This document shows, piece after piece, positions 2,188 through 12,214 of a DNA stretch of 12,371 nt. The DNA is taken from contig JAHHIK010000165.1 of NCBI GenBank assembly GCA_019358935.1, positions 1-12,371 of the forward strand, in the 5' to 3' direction. Under the pieces are notes generated by a model that was given only the letters and a program-made list of their open reading frames with translations, ran no database searches and was not told the origin of the DNA. The DNA is from Tolypothrix carrinoi HA7290-LM1 (GTDB lineage Bacteria; Cyanobacteriota; Cyanobacteriia; Cyanobacteriales; Nostocaceae). The translations under genes were made by a program, and so were the position numbers. Position 1 is the first letter of the stretch, and the number at the start of each line of letters is the position of its first letter.

Positions 2188-4203
2188 TTAATTCAGACGC
2201 CAAATTTTGATAATATTGTCAGCACTACCGCCACTAGCAATAGTTCGTCCATCCGGACTGATGGCGATCGCATAAACATAGCCAGAATCTTTCTTTAATG
2301 TGCGAATTTCTCGCCCGGTTGCTGTATCCCACAATTTGATTGTGTTGTCATTACTACCACTTGCCACAATTACACTATCTGGGTTTTTACTGTATCCTCC
2401 TTTAGGGATATAAGCAACAGAAGTAACTTTGTCATCATGTCCAGTTAGGGTGTGGATTTCCTTTCCTGTATTTAGATTCCATAATTTGATTGTCTTGTCT
2501 TTACTACCGCTAGCAAGTTGCTGTCCATCGGGACTAAAAGCAATGGAGGAAACAAAATCCAAATGTCCCGTTAAAGTGCGGATTTCTTTACCTGTGTTTA
2601 GATTCCACAGTTTGATTGTTTTGTCATAACTACCGCTAGCAAGAGTTAAACCATCAGGACTAAAGGCAATAGAAGCAACGCCACCAGAATGTCCCGTCAA
2701 AGTGCGGATTTCCTTGTTTGTTTCTAGATTCCACAGTTTAATCGTCTTATCCAAACTGCTACTAGCTAGCAGCTTACCATCTGGGCTGAAAGCCACAGAA
2801 GCAACGCTGTTAGAATGTCCTTTCAGGGTACGGATTTCTTCTCCTGTGTTTAAGTTCCACAATTTGATAGTTTTGTCAACACTACCACTGGCTATAGTTT
2901 GTCCATCCGGACTGATAGCGATCGCGTAAATGTATGACGAATGTCCTTTAAAGGTGCGGATTTCCTGTTTAGTTGTTAGATTCCATAATTTGATCGTCAG
3001 ATCGTCACTTCCAGTCACAAGCATCTGTCCATCGGGACTGAAGGTGACAGAATTAACATCGCTGGAATGTCCTTTTAGGGTATCTGGTTGATCGGAATTT
3101 TCCGAAGCTGTCTTTACAGGCTGGCTGGGAGAAGACTTAGTGATTGCAAGCGGGCGAAATTGTGAATACCAAACTCCTGCTATTGCCAACACTAGGATAC
3201 CAGCACTTACAATCAGTTGATTTTTTAGGCGATCGCCTAATTGTGGCGATCGCGCTTCGGTATAAATTAAAGTTGAAAGTGCTGTTGACGGTGGTGATAC
3301 AGACATCAAGTCACTGAGGACTTCATCCGCTGATTGATAACGCTTTTCGATATCTGTTTTCAACAGCTTGTCCAAAACCTTACCCAATTTTAAGCGTGAG
3401 GTTATTCCACTACTAGAATTATGCAAATATTTTCGCCAAGACGTAACCCAACTAAAACCCTGTTCCATCCAAAGTTGAGATGGACGAATTCCCGTCAGCA
3501 GGTGAAAGCAAGTCGCACCCAAACCGAATAAATCACTAGCGGGATAAGCTTTTCCATCTTGCATTTGTTCAATTGGGGTATAGCCATGCGAACCGATAGC
3601 TGTCCCCGTTTTCATCATGACTGTTGCCGAGAGTTGCTTTGAGGCACCAAAATCAATTAAGACTAATTGTCCGTCATTTTGACGGCGAATAATATTCTGT
3701 GGCTTGATATCTCGATGAATTACGCCGCGATCGTGAATAAACTTGAGAACGGGTAATAATGAGAGCAAAACTTCTCGAATTTTACTTTCGCTAAATGTTC
3801 CCTGTTGTTGCAATTCTTTAAGTAAATTTTGCCCATCAATAAACTGCTGGACTAAATATAAATAATTATCTTGTTCAAAGTAAGCCAAAAGCGTGGGAAT
3901 TTGGTTATGTTCTCCCAATTGTTGCAGCCGCTTCGCTTCTTCTCTAAATAGCTCAACTGCTTTACGCAATGCCGAAGCTTCCTGAATTTTCGGTGCTAAT
4001 TGTTTGACAACGCACTGTTCGTTCAGCTTATCTACATCTTCCGCTAGATAGGTTCTGCCAAATCCACCTTCATCAGATAATAATTTGATAACTCGATAAT
4101 GACCCCTTAAAAGGGAAATTAATGGAGTATCGCAATACTGGCAATATTTGCTACCATCTGGATTTAGGGGGTCTTGGCAATCGGGATTCAGGCAGCAGAG
4201 CAT
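2188..4203 (-). CDS. Membrane Ser/Thr protein kinase: N-terminal 4-Cys zinc ribbon, Hanks-type kinase, TM helix, 7 WD40 repeats
   Basis: CLNPDC...CQYC; EGGFGRTY, VVKQL, HRDIKPQN, DFG, GYTPIEQ, SDLFGLG; TM LIVSAGILVLAIAGVWY; 7 GH..W repeats. Confidence 0.95.
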   Translation of the reverse strand: MLCCLNPDCQDPLNPDGSKYCQYCDTPLISLLRGHYRVIKLLSDEGGFGRTYLAEDVDKLNEQCVVKQLAPKIQEASALRKAVELFREEAKRLQQLGEHNQIPTLLAYFEQDNYLYLVQQFIDGQNLLKELQQQGTFSESKIREVLLSLLPVLKFIHDRGVIHRDIKPQNIIRRQNDGQLVLIDFGASKQLSATVMMKTGTAIGSHGYTPIEQMQDGKAYPASDLFGLGATCFHLLTGIRPSQLWMEQGFSWVTSWRKYLHNSSSGITSRLKLGKVLDKLLKTDIEKRYQSADEVLSDLMSVSPPSTALSTLIYTEARSPQLGDRLKNQLIVSAGILVLAIAGVWYSQFRPLAITKSSPSQPVKTASENSDQPDTLKGHSSDVNSVTFSPDGQMLVTGSDDLTIKLWNLTTKQEIRTFKGHSSYIYAIAISPDGQTIASGSVDKTIKLWNLNTGEEIRTLKGHSNSVASVAFSPDGKLLASSSLDKTIKLWNLETNKEIRTLTGHSGGVASIAFSPDGLTLASGSYDKTIKLWNLNTGKEIRTLTGHLDFVSSIAFSPDGQQLASGSKDKTIKLWNLNTGKEIHTLTGHDDKVTSVAYIPKGGYSKNPDSVIVASGSNDNTIKLWDTATGREIRTLKKDSGYVYAIAISPDGRTIASGGSADNIIKIWRLN

Positions 4204-4634
4204 ACTGGGAATCCATTTGCACTTTGGGTATATGTTAATTTATGACGTATAATCTTGCTATCTGCTATCAGGTGGACATCAAATAGCCATATGTATGACA
4301 TCACCGAAGAGCGATCGCTCTTAATAATTGCATCAAATAAACCACTTTTATAATGGGAGTTACCCCTCATCACCTTTGTCACTCAGTATTCCTTGGTATA
4401 TATAATAATATAGAAGTATATATTTATTCTAGTGTTTAAATCAGTTATTGACTAACTTTATAACTCAGTAAATTTATTCAAAGCAAATGAATATAAGTAT
4501 TCTTAGTAATTTAAAATTTTAGTTTGGCATGGGAACGAAATAAACTTATCTCGTTCTAATAAATCAGCATAAAGTAGATGAAATTAACACGTCAATAATA
4601 AAATATTGTCGGGTATAACCTACCTTTAAACTCA
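4204..4634. promoter_or_regulatory. AT-rich divergent intergenic region, expected to hold the promoters of kinase 1 and the Pro/Thr-rich gene
   Basis: Head-to-head gene geometry and very AT-rich sequence; no specific operator identified. Confidence 0.5.
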
Positions 4635-6449
4635 ATGTTTTCATCAACAATGAGGAACGCAATTATGGCAATAAAAAGCAAATATAACTATCGAGACAAA
4701 TTAGACTTTATTTTGATTTGTTTCATGAGCAGTAGTTTTTTGATAAGCAGTTACGCCCTACCTCTAAGTGCTTTAGCAAGCCTTCAACCAGGTGGAAATT
4801 TCATCATAGCTAAACCACCAGATGAAAGACAACCAGAAGCAGTACAACAAGGAATCGAGCAAATTCCTGCTACTCAACCGTCCGCATCTCCAAAACCTAA
4901 CCCACCTATTGATTCACCCATACCCCCTGCGACACCTGGTACAACCACCCCAACACCACCAGCACCTACATCTACACCTCAACCCGTCAATACCCAACCA
5001 ACACCGACACCACCAGCACCTACATCTACACCTCAACCCGTCAATACCCAACCAACACCGACACCACCAGCACCTACATCTACACCTAGACCCGTCAATA
5101 CCCAACCAACACCGACACCACCAGCACCTACATCTACACCTAGACGAACCAATCCTGTAAATACCGAGCCAACAGCACCTACATCTACACCTAGACGAAC
5201 CAACCCTGTAAATACCAAGCCAACAGCACCTACATCTACACCTAGACGAACTAACCCTGTAAATACCGAGCCAACAGCACCTACATCTACACCTAGACGA
5301 ACTAACCCTGTAAATACCGAACCGACACCACCTACATCTACACCTAGACGAACTAACCCTGTAAATACCGAACCGACACCACCTACATCTACACCTAGAC
5401 GAACCAACCCTGTAAATACCGAACCAACAACGCCAGCACGTACATCTACACCTAGACGAACTAATCCTGTAAATACCGAACCGACACCACCAGCACGTAC
5501 ATCTACACCGAGACGAACCAACCCTGTAAATACCGAGCCAACACCACCAGCACGTACATCTACACCGAGACGAACCAACCCTGTAAATACCGAGCCAACA
5601 CCACCAGCACGTACATATACGCCTAGACCATCGACACCGACATATTCCAACCCGACACCGGAGCCTTCACAACCTCGTGTTCCTTCAAGACGGGGCGATC
5701 GCAAGCCAGCTACTAATCGAAGTATAGAAAGTTCGCCTGTTTCTCCATCTAGACCGCTTAATTACAAGCAAATTAACTTTGTAGATATCGCCTTTGGTGT
5801 TTTGGCTCCGGGTGACTTTAAGTCTCAAGGTAGATATTTTCATTTCTACCAGTTTCAAGGCAGAGCAAACCAACTGATCCAAATTAGACTAGGTGGCAGT
5901 GTCGATCAACGCCGCTCAAGCAACCTAAGTTTAGATCCGTTCATGTTTTTGCTTGACCCCAACAACAACGTTCTGTTAAAAAGAGGCAGTGGGGGAGCAA
6001 ACAGTGAAGTTAAAGATGCTTTCGTATTTGTCCGACTGCCTGCAAACGGTACTTATACGATCGCAGTCACTAGCCAAAATCCTGGCGATAAAGGTCGCTA
6101 CAGTCTCGCACTCAGAAATGACCGAGCCAGCTACAGTCTAGATTCGGAAAGCGAACTGACACCTCAAAGCCTAAGAAGGCAAGATGGCAGCGTTTACGAT
6201 ATTTCCAAGTTTCAAGGCAAAAAAGACCAACTTGTTAGTATTCGTGTAGATAGTGTCTATGAAGAATTTTCTCCTTATATAGTGTTGCTAGATTCTCAAG
6301 GCAAAATTGTCGCCGCTGATAATGCCAAAGATGGCAAGTACAGTGCTTTAATTGACCGAGCTAGGTTGCCTAAAGATGAAACTTACTACGTAGTGGTGAT
6401 TTCTGGTAATTCACTCCAACGCGGTAAATACCGATTGACTGTTTTCTAA
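4635..6449 (+). CDS. Exported protein with a Pro/Thr-rich tandem-repeat stalk and two C-terminal PPC-like beta-sandwich domains; start may be 4665
   Basis: Hydrophobic leader; repeat stalk; two domains with YQFQG..QLIQIRL..LDPFMFLLDP..LPANGTYTIAV..GRYSL and FQGKKDQLVSIRV..FSPYIVLLDSQG..YYVVV..GKYRL. GAGG at 4652-4655 precedes ATG 4665. Confidence 0.85.
   Translation: MFSSTMRNAIMAIKSKYNYRDKLDFILICFMSSSFLISSYALPLSALASLQPGGNFIIAKPPDERQPEAVQQGIEQIPATQPSASPKPNPPIDSPIPPATPGTTTPTPPAPTSTPQPVNTQPTPTPPAPTSTPQPVNTQPTPTPPAPTSTPRPVNTQPTPTPPAPTSTPRRTNPVNTEPTAPTSTPRRTNPVNTKPTAPTSTPRRTNPVNTEPTAPTSTPRRTNPVNTEPTPPTSTPRRTNPVNTEPTPPTSTPRRTNPVNTEPTTPARTSTPRRTNPVNTEPTPPARTSTPRRTNPVNTEPTPPARTSTPRRTNPVNTEPTPPARTYTPRPSTPTYSNPTPEPSQPRVPSRRGDRKPATNRSIESSPVSPSRPLNYKQINFVDIAFGVLAPGDFKSQGRYFHFYQFQGRANQLIQIRLGGSVDQRRSSNLSLDPFMFLLDPNNNVLLKRGSGGANSEVKDAFVFVRLPANGTYTIAVTSQNPGDKGRYSLALRNDRASYSLDSESELTPQSLRRQDGSVYDISKFQGKKDQLVSIRVDSVYEEFSPYIVLLDSQGKIVAADNAKDGKYSALIDRARLPKDETYYVVVISGNSLQRGKYRLTVF
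4945..5625 (+). repeat. Coding minisatellite: about 3 x 54 bp, 5 x 51 bp and 4 x 57 bp units
   Basis: TPTPPAPTSTPQPVNTQP x3; RRTNPVNTEPT(A/P)PTSTP x5; RRTNPVNTEPT(T/P)PART(S/Y)TP x4; shared DNA core ACATCTACACC. Confidence 0.92.
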
Positions 6450-6451
6450 TT

Positions 6452-7483
6452 TTAATGAGACATCCGCCAAATCTTGATAGTTTTGTCCTTACTACCACTG
6501 GCGATCTGCTGTCCATCGGGACTGAAAACGACAGACCAAACTCTGTTGACATGTCCTTTGAGGGTGCTGATTTCCTCTCCTGTAGACATATTCCACAATT
6601 TGATAGTGTCGTCCCAACTAGCACTAGCTAAAGTTTTGCTATCGGGGCTAAAGGCAACAGACCAAACTTTATCGCTATGACCTGTTAGGGTGCGAATTTC
6701 TTCTCCGGTAGGTAAATTCCACAATTTAATTGTGTCGTCCCAACTGCCACTGGCAAGAGTCTGTCCATCTGGACTGAAGGCGACAGAATTAACAGCGGCA
6801 TCATGACCTTTTAATGAGCGGATTTCTTTTCCTGTTGCCAAATCCCACAGTTTTATGGTACTGTCAAAATTATTACCACTGGCAAGAGTTTTGCCGTCAG
6901 GACTGATAGCGACAGATGTAACTACATCACAATTCGCTTTCAGCGTGCGGATAACCACTCCGGTAGTAACATTCCACAGTTTGATTGTCTGATCCCAACT
7001 GCCACTAACTAAACTTTGCCCATCTGGGCTAAAAGCGATCGCCTGAACTGAAACTGAATGTCCCCTTAAAGTGCGGATTTCTTGTCCGGTTGCCAAGTCC
7101 CACAGTTTGACAGTCTTGTCACTGCTGCCACTGGCAAGAGTTTTGCCATCGGGACTGAAAGCGACGGAATTAACCCAGTCAGAATGCCCTTTTAGGGTAC
7201 GGAGTTCCTGTCCCGTCGCCAGATTCCACAGTTTGATAGTCTTGTCAGTACTAACACTAGCAAGCGTCCGCCCATCCTTGCTCATAGCGACAGCCCAAAC
7301 TGAATCGGAATGTCCTTTCAAAGTCAAGTTGTTTGAAAAGGTTTCCCTAAGTGTCTTTACAGGCTGATTGGAACCAGAGGCAGCACCAGATGCAGCTAAG
7401 GGAAACTCCCAATAGAAAATTGCGCCAAATCCCAAAAGCGCGATCGCTGCACCAGTGAAAAGTTTAATTTTGAAGTAAGTCAT
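6452..7483 (-). CDS. WD40-repeat protein (7 blades) with N-terminal signal or TM anchor and no kinase domain
   Basis: Hydrophobic LFTGAAIALLGFGAIFYW, then 7 WD40 repeats. In-frame TAA stops immediately upstream of the ATG. Confidence 0.93.
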   Translation of the reverse strand: MTYFKIKLFTGAAIALLGFGAIFYWEFPLAASGAASGSNQPVKTLRETFSNNLTLKGHSDSVWAVAMSKDGRTLASVSTDKTIKLWNLATGQELRTLKGHSDWVNSVAFSPDGKTLASGSSDKTVKLWDLATGQEIRTLRGHSVSVQAIAFSPDGQSLVSGSWDQTIKLWNVTTGVVIRTLKANCDVVTSVAISPDGKTLASGNNFDSTIKLWDLATGKEIRSLKGHDAAVNSVAFSPDGQTLASGSWDDTIKLWNLPTGEEIRTLTGHSDKVWSVAFSPDSKTLASASWDDTIKLWNMSTGEEISTLKGHVNRVWSVVFSPDGQQIASGSKDKTIKIWRMSH

Positions 7484-7518
7484 GGTTTACAGACCTTACA
7501 GATTCCGCAGTTAAACAA

Positions 7519-7560
7519 CTTCAATGCTGTGCCCCGACAGTAGCGAACTCAGCATTGGAG
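7519..7560. repeat. Hairpin upstream of the WD40-only gene, possibly a decayed REP-like element
   Basis: CAATGCTG (7522-7529) pairs with CAGCATTG (7550-7557). Confidence 0.45.
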
Positions 7561-7657
7561 GTGTTATGGAAATACCTTTATCTACTCATTAAAGCGATCG
7601 GATTCCTAATTTTCTGCCACATTTTGTTATCTTTTTTCTCCTAACTGCAAAAAATTA

Positions 7658-7942
7658 GGCATTGACATTGGGCATTGGGCATTGGGCAATGGGCAATGGG
7701 CAATGGGCAATGGGTAATAGGTAATGGGTAATGGGTAATGGGCAATGGGCAATGGGCAATGGGCAATGGGCAATGGGCAATGGGCAATGGGCAATGGGAA
7801 TAAAAAGAAGCGATCGCGTATTTCCATGCCCGATGCCCCATGCCCGATGCCCGATGCCCGATGCCCGATGCCCGATGCCCGATGCCCAATGCCCGATGCC
7901 CGATGCCCGATGCCCGATGCCCGATGCCCAATGCCCCATTCC
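7658..7942. repeat. Two oppositely oriented STRR-like heptamer arrays: about 20 x GGGCA(A/T)T, then about 17 x GATGCCC, separated by a HIP1-containing spacer
   Basis: Directly visible at 7658-7801 and 7826-7942; GCGATCGC at 7810-7817. Confidence 0.95.
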
Positions 7943-9982
7943 CTAATTAGACACTCGCCAAATCTTGATAGTATTGTCCTCACTACCGCTGACGAGGGTT
8001 TTGCCATCGGGACTCAGGGCAAGGGATGTCACAGTTTGGGAATGCCCCAAAAGGGTGCGGATTTGCTTTCCGGTATCGAGATTCCACAATTTGATCGTTT
8101 GGTCGCGACTGCCAGTAGCAAGAATTTTGCCATCGGCACTAAAAGCAAGGGATGTGACTGTTTTGGAATGCCCAGAGAGTGTACGAAGTTGCTGACCGGT
8201 GGTAAGATTCCACAATTTGATAGTTTGGTCGCGACTGCCACTGGCAAGCATCTTACCATCAGGGCTGATGGCGACGGATGTTACGGTTTGGGAATGCCCC
8301 ATGAGGGTGCGAATTTCCTCACCGGTTGCCAGATGCCAGAGTTTGATGGTATTGTCAAAACTACCACTGGCAAGAATTTTTCCATTTGGGCTGATAGCGA
8401 CAGACCGAACCCAGAATGAATGTCCTTTGAGTGTGCGAATTTTTCTGCCGGTATCGAGATTCCACACTTTGATAGTATTGTCATCACTACCATCAACAAG
8501 AGTCTTGCCGTCGGCGGTGATGGCAAGGGCATGAACTGAGTCAGAATGCCCTACAAGAGTGCGAATTTGTCGTCCTGTATCGAGATTCCATACTTTAATT
8601 GTTTTGTCCTCACTACCACTAACCAGTTTTTGTCCGTCTGGGCTGATAGCGAGGACATTAACCCTGTTGGAGTGTCCTTTCAGGGTATAAATTTCCTCTC
8701 CGGTTGCCAGATTCCATACTTTGATAGCGCGATCGCTATTACTGGCAATAGTGTTACCATCTGGACTGATGGCGACAGACAAAACCGAGTTATGAAAATT
8801 ATTGAGTGTTTCGGAATTAGAAAAGTTCCCGAAGCTAATTGGTGAAGGATGTCTTAAAATCGCTTCTATCCTATCAGGATTAATGTTTGGTTGATTCAAA
8901 CTAGAGGATAAGCTGGTTTCTAAACGGCGAGATTGCTTATACCAAACATCTCCTAATCCCAACAACATAACCACACTACCTATCAAAAATAAATTTCTCA
9001 GTACTGCATACTGTTTTGGTAAAGATGGTGCTTGAGTTGGTGGCGGTTTTACAGCCGAGTATCGAGTTGCTGCTGGTACTTGCAGTAACTGTTTTTGAGT
9101 TAAATCTCTGAGAACTTCATCAACTGATTGATAGCGCTGGTGAATCTCTTTTTTTAACAGCTTGTCGAGAATCCAATCCAATTCATTATTAATCGGACTT
9201 TTTAAATATTGCCGCCAATCTGTAACCCAGCCATACCCATATTCCATCCACAACTGAAAAGGAGAAATTCCCGTTAGCAGATGAAAGCAAGTTGCACCCA
9301 AACCAAACAAATCACTAGATGGATAAGCCTTTCCGTCCCTAATTTGTTCAATCGGGGAATAGCCATGTGAACCAATTGAAGTACCAATTTTATTTTGTAC
9401 TCTTGCTGTTAACTGTTTTGAAGAGCCAAAATCTATCAAATTTAATCGCCCGTCACTTTGAGATCGGATAATATTTTCCGGTTTGATATCTCGGTGAATG
9501 ACTCCGCGTTCGTGGATAAACTTCAAAGTCGGTAATAAGTCTATCAAAATTTGTTTAATTTCCTGATAGTTATAACCTTTCCGTAACTGCAACTCTTTTA
9601 ATAAATTGTGTCCGTCGATAAACTGCTGCACCAAATATAGACAGCCGTCTTGCTCAAAATAAGCTAATAGAGTTGGAATTTGCGGATGTTGTCCGAGTTC
9701 TTGCAGTCGTTTCGCTTCTGCTTGAAACAACTCCATTGCTTTTTTTTGCGCCCAACTGCCTTGGAATTTTGGCGCTAATTGCTTGATGACGCAGCGATCG
9801 TTAAGTTTATCGATATCTTCTGATAGATAGGTTCTGCCGAATCCACCCTCATCTGAAAGTACTCGAATTACACGGAAACGATTTCGCAACAGTGGCACGA
9901 GAGGAGTGCTGCATGTTTGACAAAACTTCTTTCCTTCAAGATTTAGGGGATTTGGGCAATCGGGATTTATGCAGCAGATCAT
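7943..9982 (-). CDS. Second membrane Ser/Thr kinase (zinc ribbon, kinase, TM, 7 WD40); start placed at ATG 9982 rather than TTG 10009
   Basis: MICCINPDC aligns with MLCCLNPDC of the paralog; HRDIKPEN, DFG, GYSPIEQ; TM LFLIGSVVMLLGLGDVWY; 7 WD40 repeats. Confidence 0.94.
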   Translation of the reverse strand: MICCINPDCPNPLNLEGKKFCQTCSTPLVPLLRNRFRVIRVLSDEGGFGRTYLSEDIDKLNDRCVIKQLAPKFQGSWAQKKAMELFQAEAKRLQELGQHPQIPTLLAYFEQDGCLYLVQQFIDGHNLLKELQLRKGYNYQEIKQILIDLLPTLKFIHERGVIHRDIKPENIIRSQSDGRLNLIDFGSSKQLTARVQNKIGTSIGSHGYSPIEQIRDGKAYPSSDLFGLGATCFHLLTGISPFQLWMEYGYGWVTDWRQYLKSPINNELDWILDKLLKKEIHQRYQSVDEVLRDLTQKQLLQVPAATRYSAVKPPPTQAPSLPKQYAVLRNLFLIGSVVMLLGLGDVWYKQSRRLETSLSSSLNQPNINPDRIEAILRHPSPISFGNFSNSETLNNFHNSVLSVAISPDGNTIASNSDRAIKVWNLATGEEIYTLKGHSNRVNVLAISPDGQKLVSGSEDKTIKVWNLDTGRQIRTLVGHSDSVHALAITADGKTLVDGSDDNTIKVWNLDTGRKIRTLKGHSFWVRSVAISPNGKILASGSFDNTIKLWHLATGEEIRTLMGHSQTVTSVAISPDGKMLASGSRDQTIKLWNLTTGQQLRTLSGHSKTVTSLAFSADGKILATGSRDQTIKLWNLDTGKQIRTLLGHSQTVTSLALSPDGKTLVSGSEDNTIKIWRVSN

Positions 9983-10238: not shown

Positions 10239-10805
10239 TTAGTTTATACATTGGCAATTCACAATTTGTTTAGTGTTAATTGAAACTTTTTTATAAGTTT
10301 CCATTACTGACACTGAATTGAGTAAAAATGTTTGTTTGTTAATACATGAATAGCGCAGTCGTGTAAGTTTTGCCACTTCTGCAACTAGCTTATCGGGGTC
10401 AAAAGGCTTAAAAATAAGTTCTTGAAAGCCAGCTTCAAAAGCTTTCGCACGCACTTGCGGATGTGCATAACCCGTCAAAGCAAGCGCAGGAAGAAATCCT
10501 CCGATCTTAGCTTCTTTGCGTCTGATAGAGCGAATCAGCGAATAACCATCTTTGCCTTGCATACAGATGTCGCTGATTAAAACATCTGGCTTTGATTCTT
10601 CTATCGCTTCAATGGCTTGATCCACCGATGTTACGGTCTTCACCTGTGCCTGATAATCTTCAAAAATAACTTTAACCAGATACAGGCAATCGATATTGTC
10701 ATCTACTACAAGTATTCGCAAGTTACCAAGAGATGAAAAGTCAACTTGTGGTGTTTTTAGCGATGTGCTTTCTTGAGTATGTGAATCGCAAAAGTTGTTT
10801 GACAC
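10239..10805 (-). CDS. Stand-alone response regulator (receiver domain with short N- and C-terminal extensions)
   Basis: ILVVDDN, LISDICM (phosphoacceptor Asp), ALTG, KPFD; GTG start preceded by AAGGCGG. Confidence 0.88.
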   Translation of the reverse strand: MSNNFCDSHTQESTSLKTPQVDFSSLGNLRILVVDDNIDCLYLVKVIFEDYQAQVKTVTSVDQAIEAIEESKPDVLISDICMQGKDGYSLIRSIRRKEAKIGGFLPALALTGYAHPQVRAKAFEAGFQELIFKPFDPDKLVAEVAKLTRLRYSCINKQTFLLNSVSVMETYKKVSINTKQIVNCQCIN

Positions 10806-11428: not shown

Positions 11429-12214
11429 TCACTCAGCTTTTAACTCTCCAACTAAAGGCTCCTGGGCAATCTTAGCTAAGTCTACTGATTCTAAAAGACT
11501 TTGCCAATCATTTTTTAATTGCTAATCATCAGGACGCTTTTGACGTGCGAGCGCCAAGGTGGTAAGGCTATCGGACCAAATGCCAGAGGCAGCGTAAATA
11601 GCAGCGCGATCGCGCGGTGAAGCTTTGTTTAACTCAGTCGTCAAGTTTTCGTTACTGACGATTTGTTTGAGCCATCCTGTCGTAACTATTATGTCACTAT
11701 ACCGACGTGAAAGGTTACAAATTGCCGCAAAATACCATTGATACTCTTCACCAATTTTGAGCAATGGCTTTTTTGAATTAACAGGTAAGCTGAGGCTAAA
11801 AATACCAGGCTTATTATTTACTTTAAAGGTTTGTTTGTAAAGGTTTTGTCCAGTTGCATCCATCAAAACAAATTCCAATGCTTGTACAGAGGTTTTAGGT
11901 GTTTTAGGAATATAGAAAAATAATTTTGTCCTTTCGGAGGAGGTAAGTGCAAGATTATTGGCAGGCATTAGAGCTATTAATCTATGTTCGGCACCGAACA
12001 AACAATCAGTACCGGTTGTTGGTGCTATCCGCCTACCATCCTTCCTGTCGCTAGTACCTTGATATTTGATCGGCATTAAACGTGATACTGGTGTAACGGG
12101 TGTCTTTTGCTCTAAAGGTATAGATTGTGTTTGAGCCGTTGTTATACCAACAGATAACAATGAACTTGCAACTACAATTGCAACTACAGATTTCATCCCA
12201 AGTACTCGTTGCAT
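11429..12214 (-). pseudogene. DUF928 family exported protein interrupted by an in-frame TAG at 11522-11524
   Basis: Signal peptide; LMP, T.SER..LFFYIP, LEFVL, L.IGEEYQWYF..IC, IYA..GIW.D.L motifs. Past the TAG the frame continues QLKNDWQSLLESVDLAKIAQEPLVGELKAE to TGA at 11429-11431. Confidence 0.8.

Follow-up and report, generated by a model that had tools for sequence, protein, structure and literature searches.

Filamentous nitrogen-fixing cyanobacteria encode roughly 50 Ser/Thr kinases, and to our knowledge the extracellular ligands of these enzymes are essentially unknown. We examined a locus of Tolypothrix carrinoi HA7290-LM1 that encodes two WD40 kinases (K1 and K2), a kinase-less WD40 paralog (W) and an exported protein with two tandem PPC domains (the PPC protein), in the order K1 (−), PPC protein (+), W (−) and K2 (−). 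The window analyzed is an entire contig of 12,371 bp from a 7.96-Mb genome. An earlier sequence-only reading had grouped the four genes into a single candidate receptor-kinase system. All four open reading frames (ORFs) prove to be real and intact across positions 2188–9982, and the locus is best read as two adjacent modules, A (K1 and the PPC protein) and B (K2 and W), not as one four-gene system. K1 and the PPC protein are probably coupled in function, and the best explanation of the data, which we advance with some reserve, is that they form a cognate pair in which a conserved 21-residue motif of the PPC protein would bind the periplasmic propeller of K1.

The proposed link between a WD40 kinase and an exported stalk protein is conserved, in the form of K1 and the PPC gene. 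We fetched 88 distinct PPC copies, a non-random set of which 82 have visible upstream DNA, and in 78 of these 82 loci a K1-type kinase lies head-to-head with the PPC gene. The four exceptions are a paralogous copy in genome G138, genomes G455 and G463, where K1 and the PPC gene are separated and both retained, and G037. Two further genomes (G103 and G046) possess two PPC copies each, and every copy has its own head-to-head WD40 kinase. Among 151 evenly drawn Nostocaceae genomes, the PPC pair is found in 67 and the canonical K1 propeller in 63 at the thresholds used, with both present in 62. The other five PPC-positive genomes (G020, G051, G071, G148 and G168) carry a divergent K1 adjoining the PPC gene; K1, canonical or divergent, occurs in all 67 and stands alone in one genome. 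The remaining 83 genomes show neither gene at these thresholds, which could miss a divergent K1. When All3118, the ortholog of the PPC protein in Nostoc PCC 7120, is used as the query, matches appear in 193 of 360 genomes of the family; across 237 genomes from other families of the order, the only ortholog-level PPC match is in G037.

The G037 locus (L061:6728–10546) fuses a two-partner-secretion exoprotein to the PPC pair, and we rejected it as Rosetta-stone evidence. Starting at the Pro-Thr repeat, the final 2.8 kb of its contig match a Nostocaceae locus with 96% DNA identity, and the genome yields no K1-level kinase match (best 58% identity). The fusion is probably an assembly chimera created at Pro-Thr repeats. 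A plasmid search (2 records) returned no mobile copy of the module, and a metagenome scan gave mostly generic WD40 matches.

Both genes of module A are present in PCC 7120. The K1 ortholog is the kinase head-to-head with all3118, which is Alr3119 by locus tag and position and has been catalogued as a WD40(7) kinase (PMC2176072, available part). In G587, a gene whose product is 100% identical to All3118 lies head-to-head with a canonical K1, and a K2-type kinase occupies the published all0438 coordinates. The start sites of all3118 and alr3119 are listed back-to-back on opposite strands, 22 nt apart; the same source records TU02017, a nitrogen-induced antisense RNA inside alr3119, with values of about 2 at 9 h and 24 h (PMC10287535 supplement, available part). 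Expression of alr3119 is up 2.37-fold in biofilm and is also up in desiccation (PMC13156569 supplement, available part). All3118 is listed with a GO term only in PMC7797909, and all3118 is named in no main text found in our literature search. Directly upstream of the K1 start codon, a leader on the K1 strand is conserved in most of 55 intergenic regions and contains a TATACT-like hexamer in many orthologs, making it a candidate promoter or regulatory leader. A consensus promoter scan was at chance level (2 versus 3.1).

K1 and K2 have the identical architecture and intact catalytic motifs that had been ascribed to them. A domain search assigns to each the NCBIfam 4Cys prefix (above cut-off), Pkinase and seven WD40 repeats, and the motifs fall at the same positions in both (EGGFG at 45, K67, HRDIKPxN at 163, DFG at 184, PIE, and SDLFGLG at 223). 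Both window kinases contain the Gly loop, β3 Lys, HRD and DFG of Hanks-type kinases, and both combine an N-terminal kinase with seven WD40 repeats, as in the cbSTKII class. DFG is retained in 56 of 56 K1 and 50 of 50 K2 orthologs; the strict HRD pattern is present in 52 of these K1 orthologs and in all 50 of K2. The two proteins are 59% identical (68% across the kinase domain), and W is approximately 60% identical to either propeller. W consists of seven WD40 repeats and one N-terminal hydrophobic segment (Kyte-Doolittle (KD) score 1.76), and is indeed a kinase-less paralog that pairs the same ectodomain class with an export or anchor segment. The PPC protein likewise has one N-terminal hydrophobic segment (KD 1.77).

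In both kinases, one hydrophobic segment separates the kinase domain from the propeller (KD 1.83 in K1 and 1.92 in K2), and our topology assignments rest on this hydropathy and on the positive-inside charge bias. The K1 segment is present in all 56 orthologs (median KD 1.74, with 51 of 56 at 1.5 or above), which average 3.2 Lys/Arg residues before the segment and 1.3 after it. Because hydropathy and charge bias agree across orthologs, K1 is probably oriented N-in/C-out, which would place the propeller in the periplasm and leave the kinase inside. The corresponding K2 segment (n = 50; median KD 1.92, with 43 at 1.5 or above) shows no such bias (2.7 Lys/Arg before versus 2.5 after), and an N-in/C-out topology for K2 is less sure and remains ambiguous. 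The idea that a single transmembrane (TM) helix splits kinase and propeller across the membrane thus stands for K1 and is ambiguous for K2.

The PPC protein probably starts at Met6 or Met11. Its N-terminal segment looks like a cleavable signal peptide, with an A-x-A-like site in 35 of 52 orthologs, and as such does not establish a membrane anchor. Pro/Thr tandem repeats with units of 51–54 bp lie at 4942–5605 of the window. PF04151 matches two stretches (51.7 bits against a cut-off of 25.9), and an AlphaFold2 model of the monomer, built from 42 sequences, is folded only at residues 371–604, as two β-sandwiches; nearly all else has a pLDDT below 50, and the motif is also of low pLDDT. The top structural matches of this predicted model are the collagen-binding/PPC domains of ColG, ColH and the B. 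anthracis collagenase (Z 12.9, 12.7 and 12.2; 2.0 rmsd over 103 aligned residues for the best) and PliG (Z 11.7), all of the same fold at rmsd 2.0–2.4 over about 100 aligned residues and 13–19% identity. Unlike the collagenases, the PPC protein yielded no catalytic peptidase domain in domain searches or in the model, which folds residues 371–604 only, and the "peptidase" names attached to it in databases are mislabels. Among distant homologs outside the family (32–39%), the two that were scanned are exported trypsin-type proteases with the same PPC pair, so the PPC protein looks like a protease-less derivative. An ESM Atlas search returned PPC clusters only.

The 21-residue motif sits behind the signal peptide and is conserved, whereas the linker that follows it is not. 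The motif model matches 64 of the 151 genomes, every one of them PPC-positive. On the receptor side, we assigned top-face hotspots by the R1-2/R1/D-1 rule (PMC3419727, available part) and found that each propeller clade carries its own conserved top-face code; such clade-specific codes point to fixed ligands. The motif could be read in 74 of 77 K1/PPC pairs, and a K1 face was termed rewritten when more than 10 of its 21 residues had changed. With this face threshold and the motif test, both chosen after the data were seen, all 11 pairs with a rewritten face have an altered motif as well, and 62 of the 63 others keep theirs. Partial correlations over 54 pairs, with relatedness ignored, are 0.45–0.73 between top face and motif versus 0.26–0.55 between top face and PPC domain. 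Four distinct face/motif types are found inside the divergent clade, and canonical lineages retain face and motif alike on long branches.

The analysis establishes gene content, linkage, co-occurrence and residue conservation, and from them we infer every molecular step of the proposed mechanism. Hydropathy and charge suggest that K1 spans the inner membrane with its kinase inside and its propeller in the periplasm. The PPC protein would be exported by Sec, and its two PPC domains, judging by their fold, may attach to an envelope or matrix polymer. The N-terminal motif, held at the end of a variable Pro/Thr tether, would then bind the top face of the K1 propeller, as conservation and co-change suggest. 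Binding would cluster K1 and activate it through kinase dimerization, as in mycobacterial receptor kinases, so that the state of the envelope or of surface attachment is reported. In module B, K2 would act as a nitrogen-regulated kinase and W as an accessory co-receptor or decoy. A more doubtful extension is that the tethered peptide on the propeller senses envelope distance or attachment, with receptor and ligand falling into matched specificity types that change in concert, which might make it a bacterial counterpart of plant peptide/receptor-kinase wall sensing. If the pairing is correct, a cyanobacterial Ser/Thr receptor kinase would have a named protein ligand for the first time, within the searches made. 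The locus gives one kinase a specific candidate ligand, a 21-residue peptide with a predicted binding face, and the presence of both genes in PCC 7120 together with natural specificity variants permits direct testing and a swap. It also suggests that these WD40 kinases, whose annotations describe intracellular scaffolds or predicted cytoskeleton proteins, may be periplasm-facing receptors.

Several observations weigh against a binding pair. Ten of the 11 rewritten pairs belong to one deep clade, and the co-change reduces to one or two independent contrasts and is not significant; because the trees need just one or two changes, an independent-pair test cannot reach significance. Within the window's genus (nine genomes), blades 1, 6 and 7 of the K1 face do not vary, blades 2–5 vary fast (pN/pS 0.83 versus 0.23 elsewhere), and the motif is unchanged in the six pairs compared within the genus despite this variation. 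Variable blades with a constant motif could mean that the ligand covers half of the face, that selection is relaxed, or that there is a second ligand that varies. G136 has a K1 near the end of a 2.8-kb contig (in an assembly of 410 contigs) and no PPC or motif match, and G138 (L074), in which the PPC gene alone is truncated, keeps K1 beside only a 112-aa PPC remnant; in G139 (L193) a PPC remnant persists without K1. In G002 (L065), K1 and the PPC gene are both cut to approximately 80 aa, and since head-to-head genes can be lost in one such deletion, their co-absence is partly a matter of physical linkage. A crude ungapped test for a 22-nt bidirectional promoter core revealed no conservation between genera. 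In the available part of the PMC13156569 supplement, the biofilm genes include alr3119 and lack all3118, and All3118 is missing from the exoproteome supplements of both PMC10936207 and PMC10957091.

K1 and the PPC protein might instead work in one pathway from a shared promoter region without binding each other, the PPC protein serving as an adhesin or scaffold of the envelope or matrix, with a motif that binds another partner (a secretin, porin or chaperone), while K1 senses another ligand. Linkage and co-occurrence fit this arrangement equally well, the variable K1 face and constant motif in the window's genus favor it, and the distant trypsin-type proteases give no sign that the PPC pair they carry requires a partner kinase. 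We nevertheless regard it as rather unlikely, given that the motif changed in every pair with a rewritten face, that the divergent clade contains four face/motif types and that canonical long-branch lineages keep both elements. Matched receptor and exported-ligand types could also let filaments tell relatives apart, a form of the non-self recognition raised in the sequence-only reading. One genus does hold both canonical-pair species and species with a fully rewritten face/motif type (L152 and L154–L158 versus L069, L070, L120 and L168–L170), with one type per genome searched, and K1 top-face codons have a pN of 0.149 against 0.056 for random 21-codon sets (0.1% of 5000 draws are as high). Against this, a single type accounts for 63 of the 74 pairs in the family, pN/pS is below 1 and also fits relaxed selection, and in K2 and W the face is better conserved than the frame. 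With predicted faces conserved within clades, the recognition idea is mostly contradicted, although part of the K1 face does vary fast in the window's genus, and we consider it very unlikely.

It is also improbable that all four proteins form one system, in which a K1/K2 heterodimer would act with W as a receptor-like protein and the PPC protein as an envelope-spanning stalk. The four genes are adjacent in 25 of 78 loci judgeable on both sides, in many genera, which suggests an old arrangement, and K2 adjoins the PPC gene without W in nine loci; old adjacency is, however, also expected from tandem duplication of three same-strand paralogs. A single operon of all four genes is impossible, since the PPC gene is read from the opposite strand, diverging from K1 and converging on W, with the two stop codons 2 bp apart. 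At the thresholds used, W was not found in 29 of 67 PPC-positive genomes, nor the PPC protein in 12 of the 50 W-positive genomes (among 151). A K1/K2-type kinase is present in 149 of 151 genomes, and a K2-type kinase is the best match in 17 of 20 PPC-negative genomes fetched. In PCC 7120, the K1 and K2 orthologs are 3.2 Mb apart and differently regulated: all0438 has a value of 3.69, read as log2, in the nitrogen comparison of 9 h with 0 h, the nitrogen-regulated sheet does not list the units of all3118 and alr3119 (PMC10287535 supplement, available part), and all0438 is lower in sigC and sigE mutants (PMC4390870, available part). A single four-gene unit is not borne out, and the gene-neighborhood conservation suggested as a check holds for K1 with PPC (78/82) and for K2 with W (14/16 assessable loci away from the PPC gene) while failing for the four together. 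It is also very unlikely that the propellers sit in the cytoplasm as scaffolds, like those of soluble kinase-WD40 proteins, with the hydrophobic segments serving as peripheral or re-entrant anchors. The K2 segment is short, is followed by Asp/Glu and basic residues and lacks charge bias, and three other kinase-WD40 proteins of this genome, all in its lower KD group, have no such segment. K1 and K2, however, belong to the upper group of 21 among 45 examined kinases of this genome with KD of at least 1.65 (the rest are at or below 1.43), the positive-inside bias of K1 is clear, and W has a K1-like N-terminal segment behind basic residues, like a signal sequence.

The suggested pairing of a receptor kinase with a receptor-like protein finds its counterpart in module B. 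Seventeen W loci were fetched away from the PPC gene; W is directly behind K2 in 14, is elsewhere in two and is cut off in one. In the propeller tree, W (31 rows) and K2 (50 rows) each form one clade, as do 54 of the 56 K1 propellers, and the other two K1 propellers fall in a fourth paralog group. Since all 31 W rows form one clade (support 0.945), we rejected the possibility that W arose recently in this genome by truncation of K1; W is an old clade of its own and accompanies K2.

Plant receptor kinase, receptor-like protein and secreted peptide systems comprise a TM kinase, a kinase-less ectodomain paralog and a secreted ligand. The present locus resembles them in how it might work, with a TM kinase, a kinase-less paralog, a secreted proteinaceous candidate ligand and a neighboring soluble kinase (K3); unlike the plant systems, whose ectodomains are not homologous to these, it uses WD40 instead of LRR or malectin. 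M. tuberculosis PknD, from which the dimerization model is borrowed, shares with K1 the order kinase, TM segment and β-propeller sensor; it differs in having a six-bladed propeller, not a seven-bladed WD40, and the available part of a 2012 review names no ligand and mentions no cognate exported partner gene (PMC3601408). Thermomonospora curvata PkwA (PDB 5YZV; E 1e-80) and, in the available part of its source, Deinococcus RqkA also join a kinase to a C-terminal WD40-type propeller; the PkwA paper, in whose text "membrane" is absent, gives no membrane placement and no PPC partner. The PCC 7120 orthologs of K1 and K2, Alr3119 and All0438 (cbSTKII), likewise consist of a kinase and seven WD40 repeats; they have been catalogued by domain and expression, and the available part of that literature gives no membrane topology, partner or ligand for them (PMC2176072). 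Cyanobacterial kinase-WD40 proteins as such have been catalogued already (PMC2176072, PMC1262709 and PMC5587647, available parts). Our literature search, which most subscription journals lay outside, turned up no description of the head-to-head pair, of the motif or of the K2-W module. As a class, such receptors are known from propeller receptor kinases such as PknD; the proposed cognate pair and the conserved motif are new within the literature searched.

Table 1 Features of the K1/PPC/W/K2 locus (window positions).
Feature	Position	Strand	Details
K1: 4Cys prefix, Hanks-type Ser/Thr kinase, TM helix, 7-bladed WD40 propeller	2188–4203	−	671 aa; domain search
K1 predicted TM helix, aa 330–348	3160–3216	−	Hydropathy and charge bias
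K1 WD40 propeller; predicted top-face residues invariant in genus in blades 1, 6, 7, variable in blades 2–5	2191–3090	−	
K1 leader, ~60 nt conserved, directly 5′ of start codon; promoter or leader candidate	4204–4270	−	Alignment of 55 intergenic regions
PPC protein: signal peptide, conserved motif, Pro/Thr linker, two PPC domains	4635–6449	+	604 aa
Predicted Sec signal peptide or signal anchor of PPC protein	4635–4778	+	Basic n-region, Ser-rich h-region, Ala-Leu-Ala site at aa 46–48
21-residue motif, consensus IAKxPDERQPEAVxQGIEQIP; candidate K1-propeller ligand	4806–4868	+	Conservation
Pro/Thr/Ser-rich repeat linker of PPC protein	4869–5744	+	80–338 aa in orthologs, sequence not conserved
Two tandem PPC domains, predicted fold of collagenase collagen-binding domains	5745–6446	+	Domain search, model
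W: N-terminal hydrophobic segment like K1 TM, then 7 WD40	6452–7483	−	343 aa
K2: 4Cys prefix, kinase, hydrophobic segment (aa 326–344), 7 WD40; All0438 ortholog	7943–9982	−	ATG start, 679 aa

The soluble kinase K3 lies directly 5′ of K2 in 42 of 64 loci (as at L046:3423–4583) and on a separate contig in this genome (G000 C120:23160–24320); it is a candidate cytoplasmic partner. A fourth TM-WD40 kinase paralog of about 660–670 aa is often encoded just downstream of K1 (L085, L108, L111, L093, L095, L071 and L072), and in G103 and G046 it is paired with a PPC protein of its own, whose motif differs. Between W and K2, positions 7654–7936 contain two roughly inverted arrays of 7-bp tandem repeats, typical of heterocystous cyanobacteria, which we take to be STRR sequences. 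The inverted arrays could form a long hairpin in a K2-W transcript.

The whole genome contains 55 kinase ORFs and 35 WD40 ORFs, six of which carry both domains, and one match to the PPC pair. The nearest named loci are from Tolypothrix, Hassallia and Spirirestis, at 94–98% across the PPC domains, and the flanking neighbors differ between relatives. In the window, the flanking genes encode a DUF218 protein (ElyC/SanA-like; 163–768), MsrB (934–1428), a 99-aa exported protein without a family (1804–2103), a stand-alone receiver (10239–10805) and a DUF928 protein (11522–12214). The N-terminal leader of MsrB is presumably twin-arginine-like.

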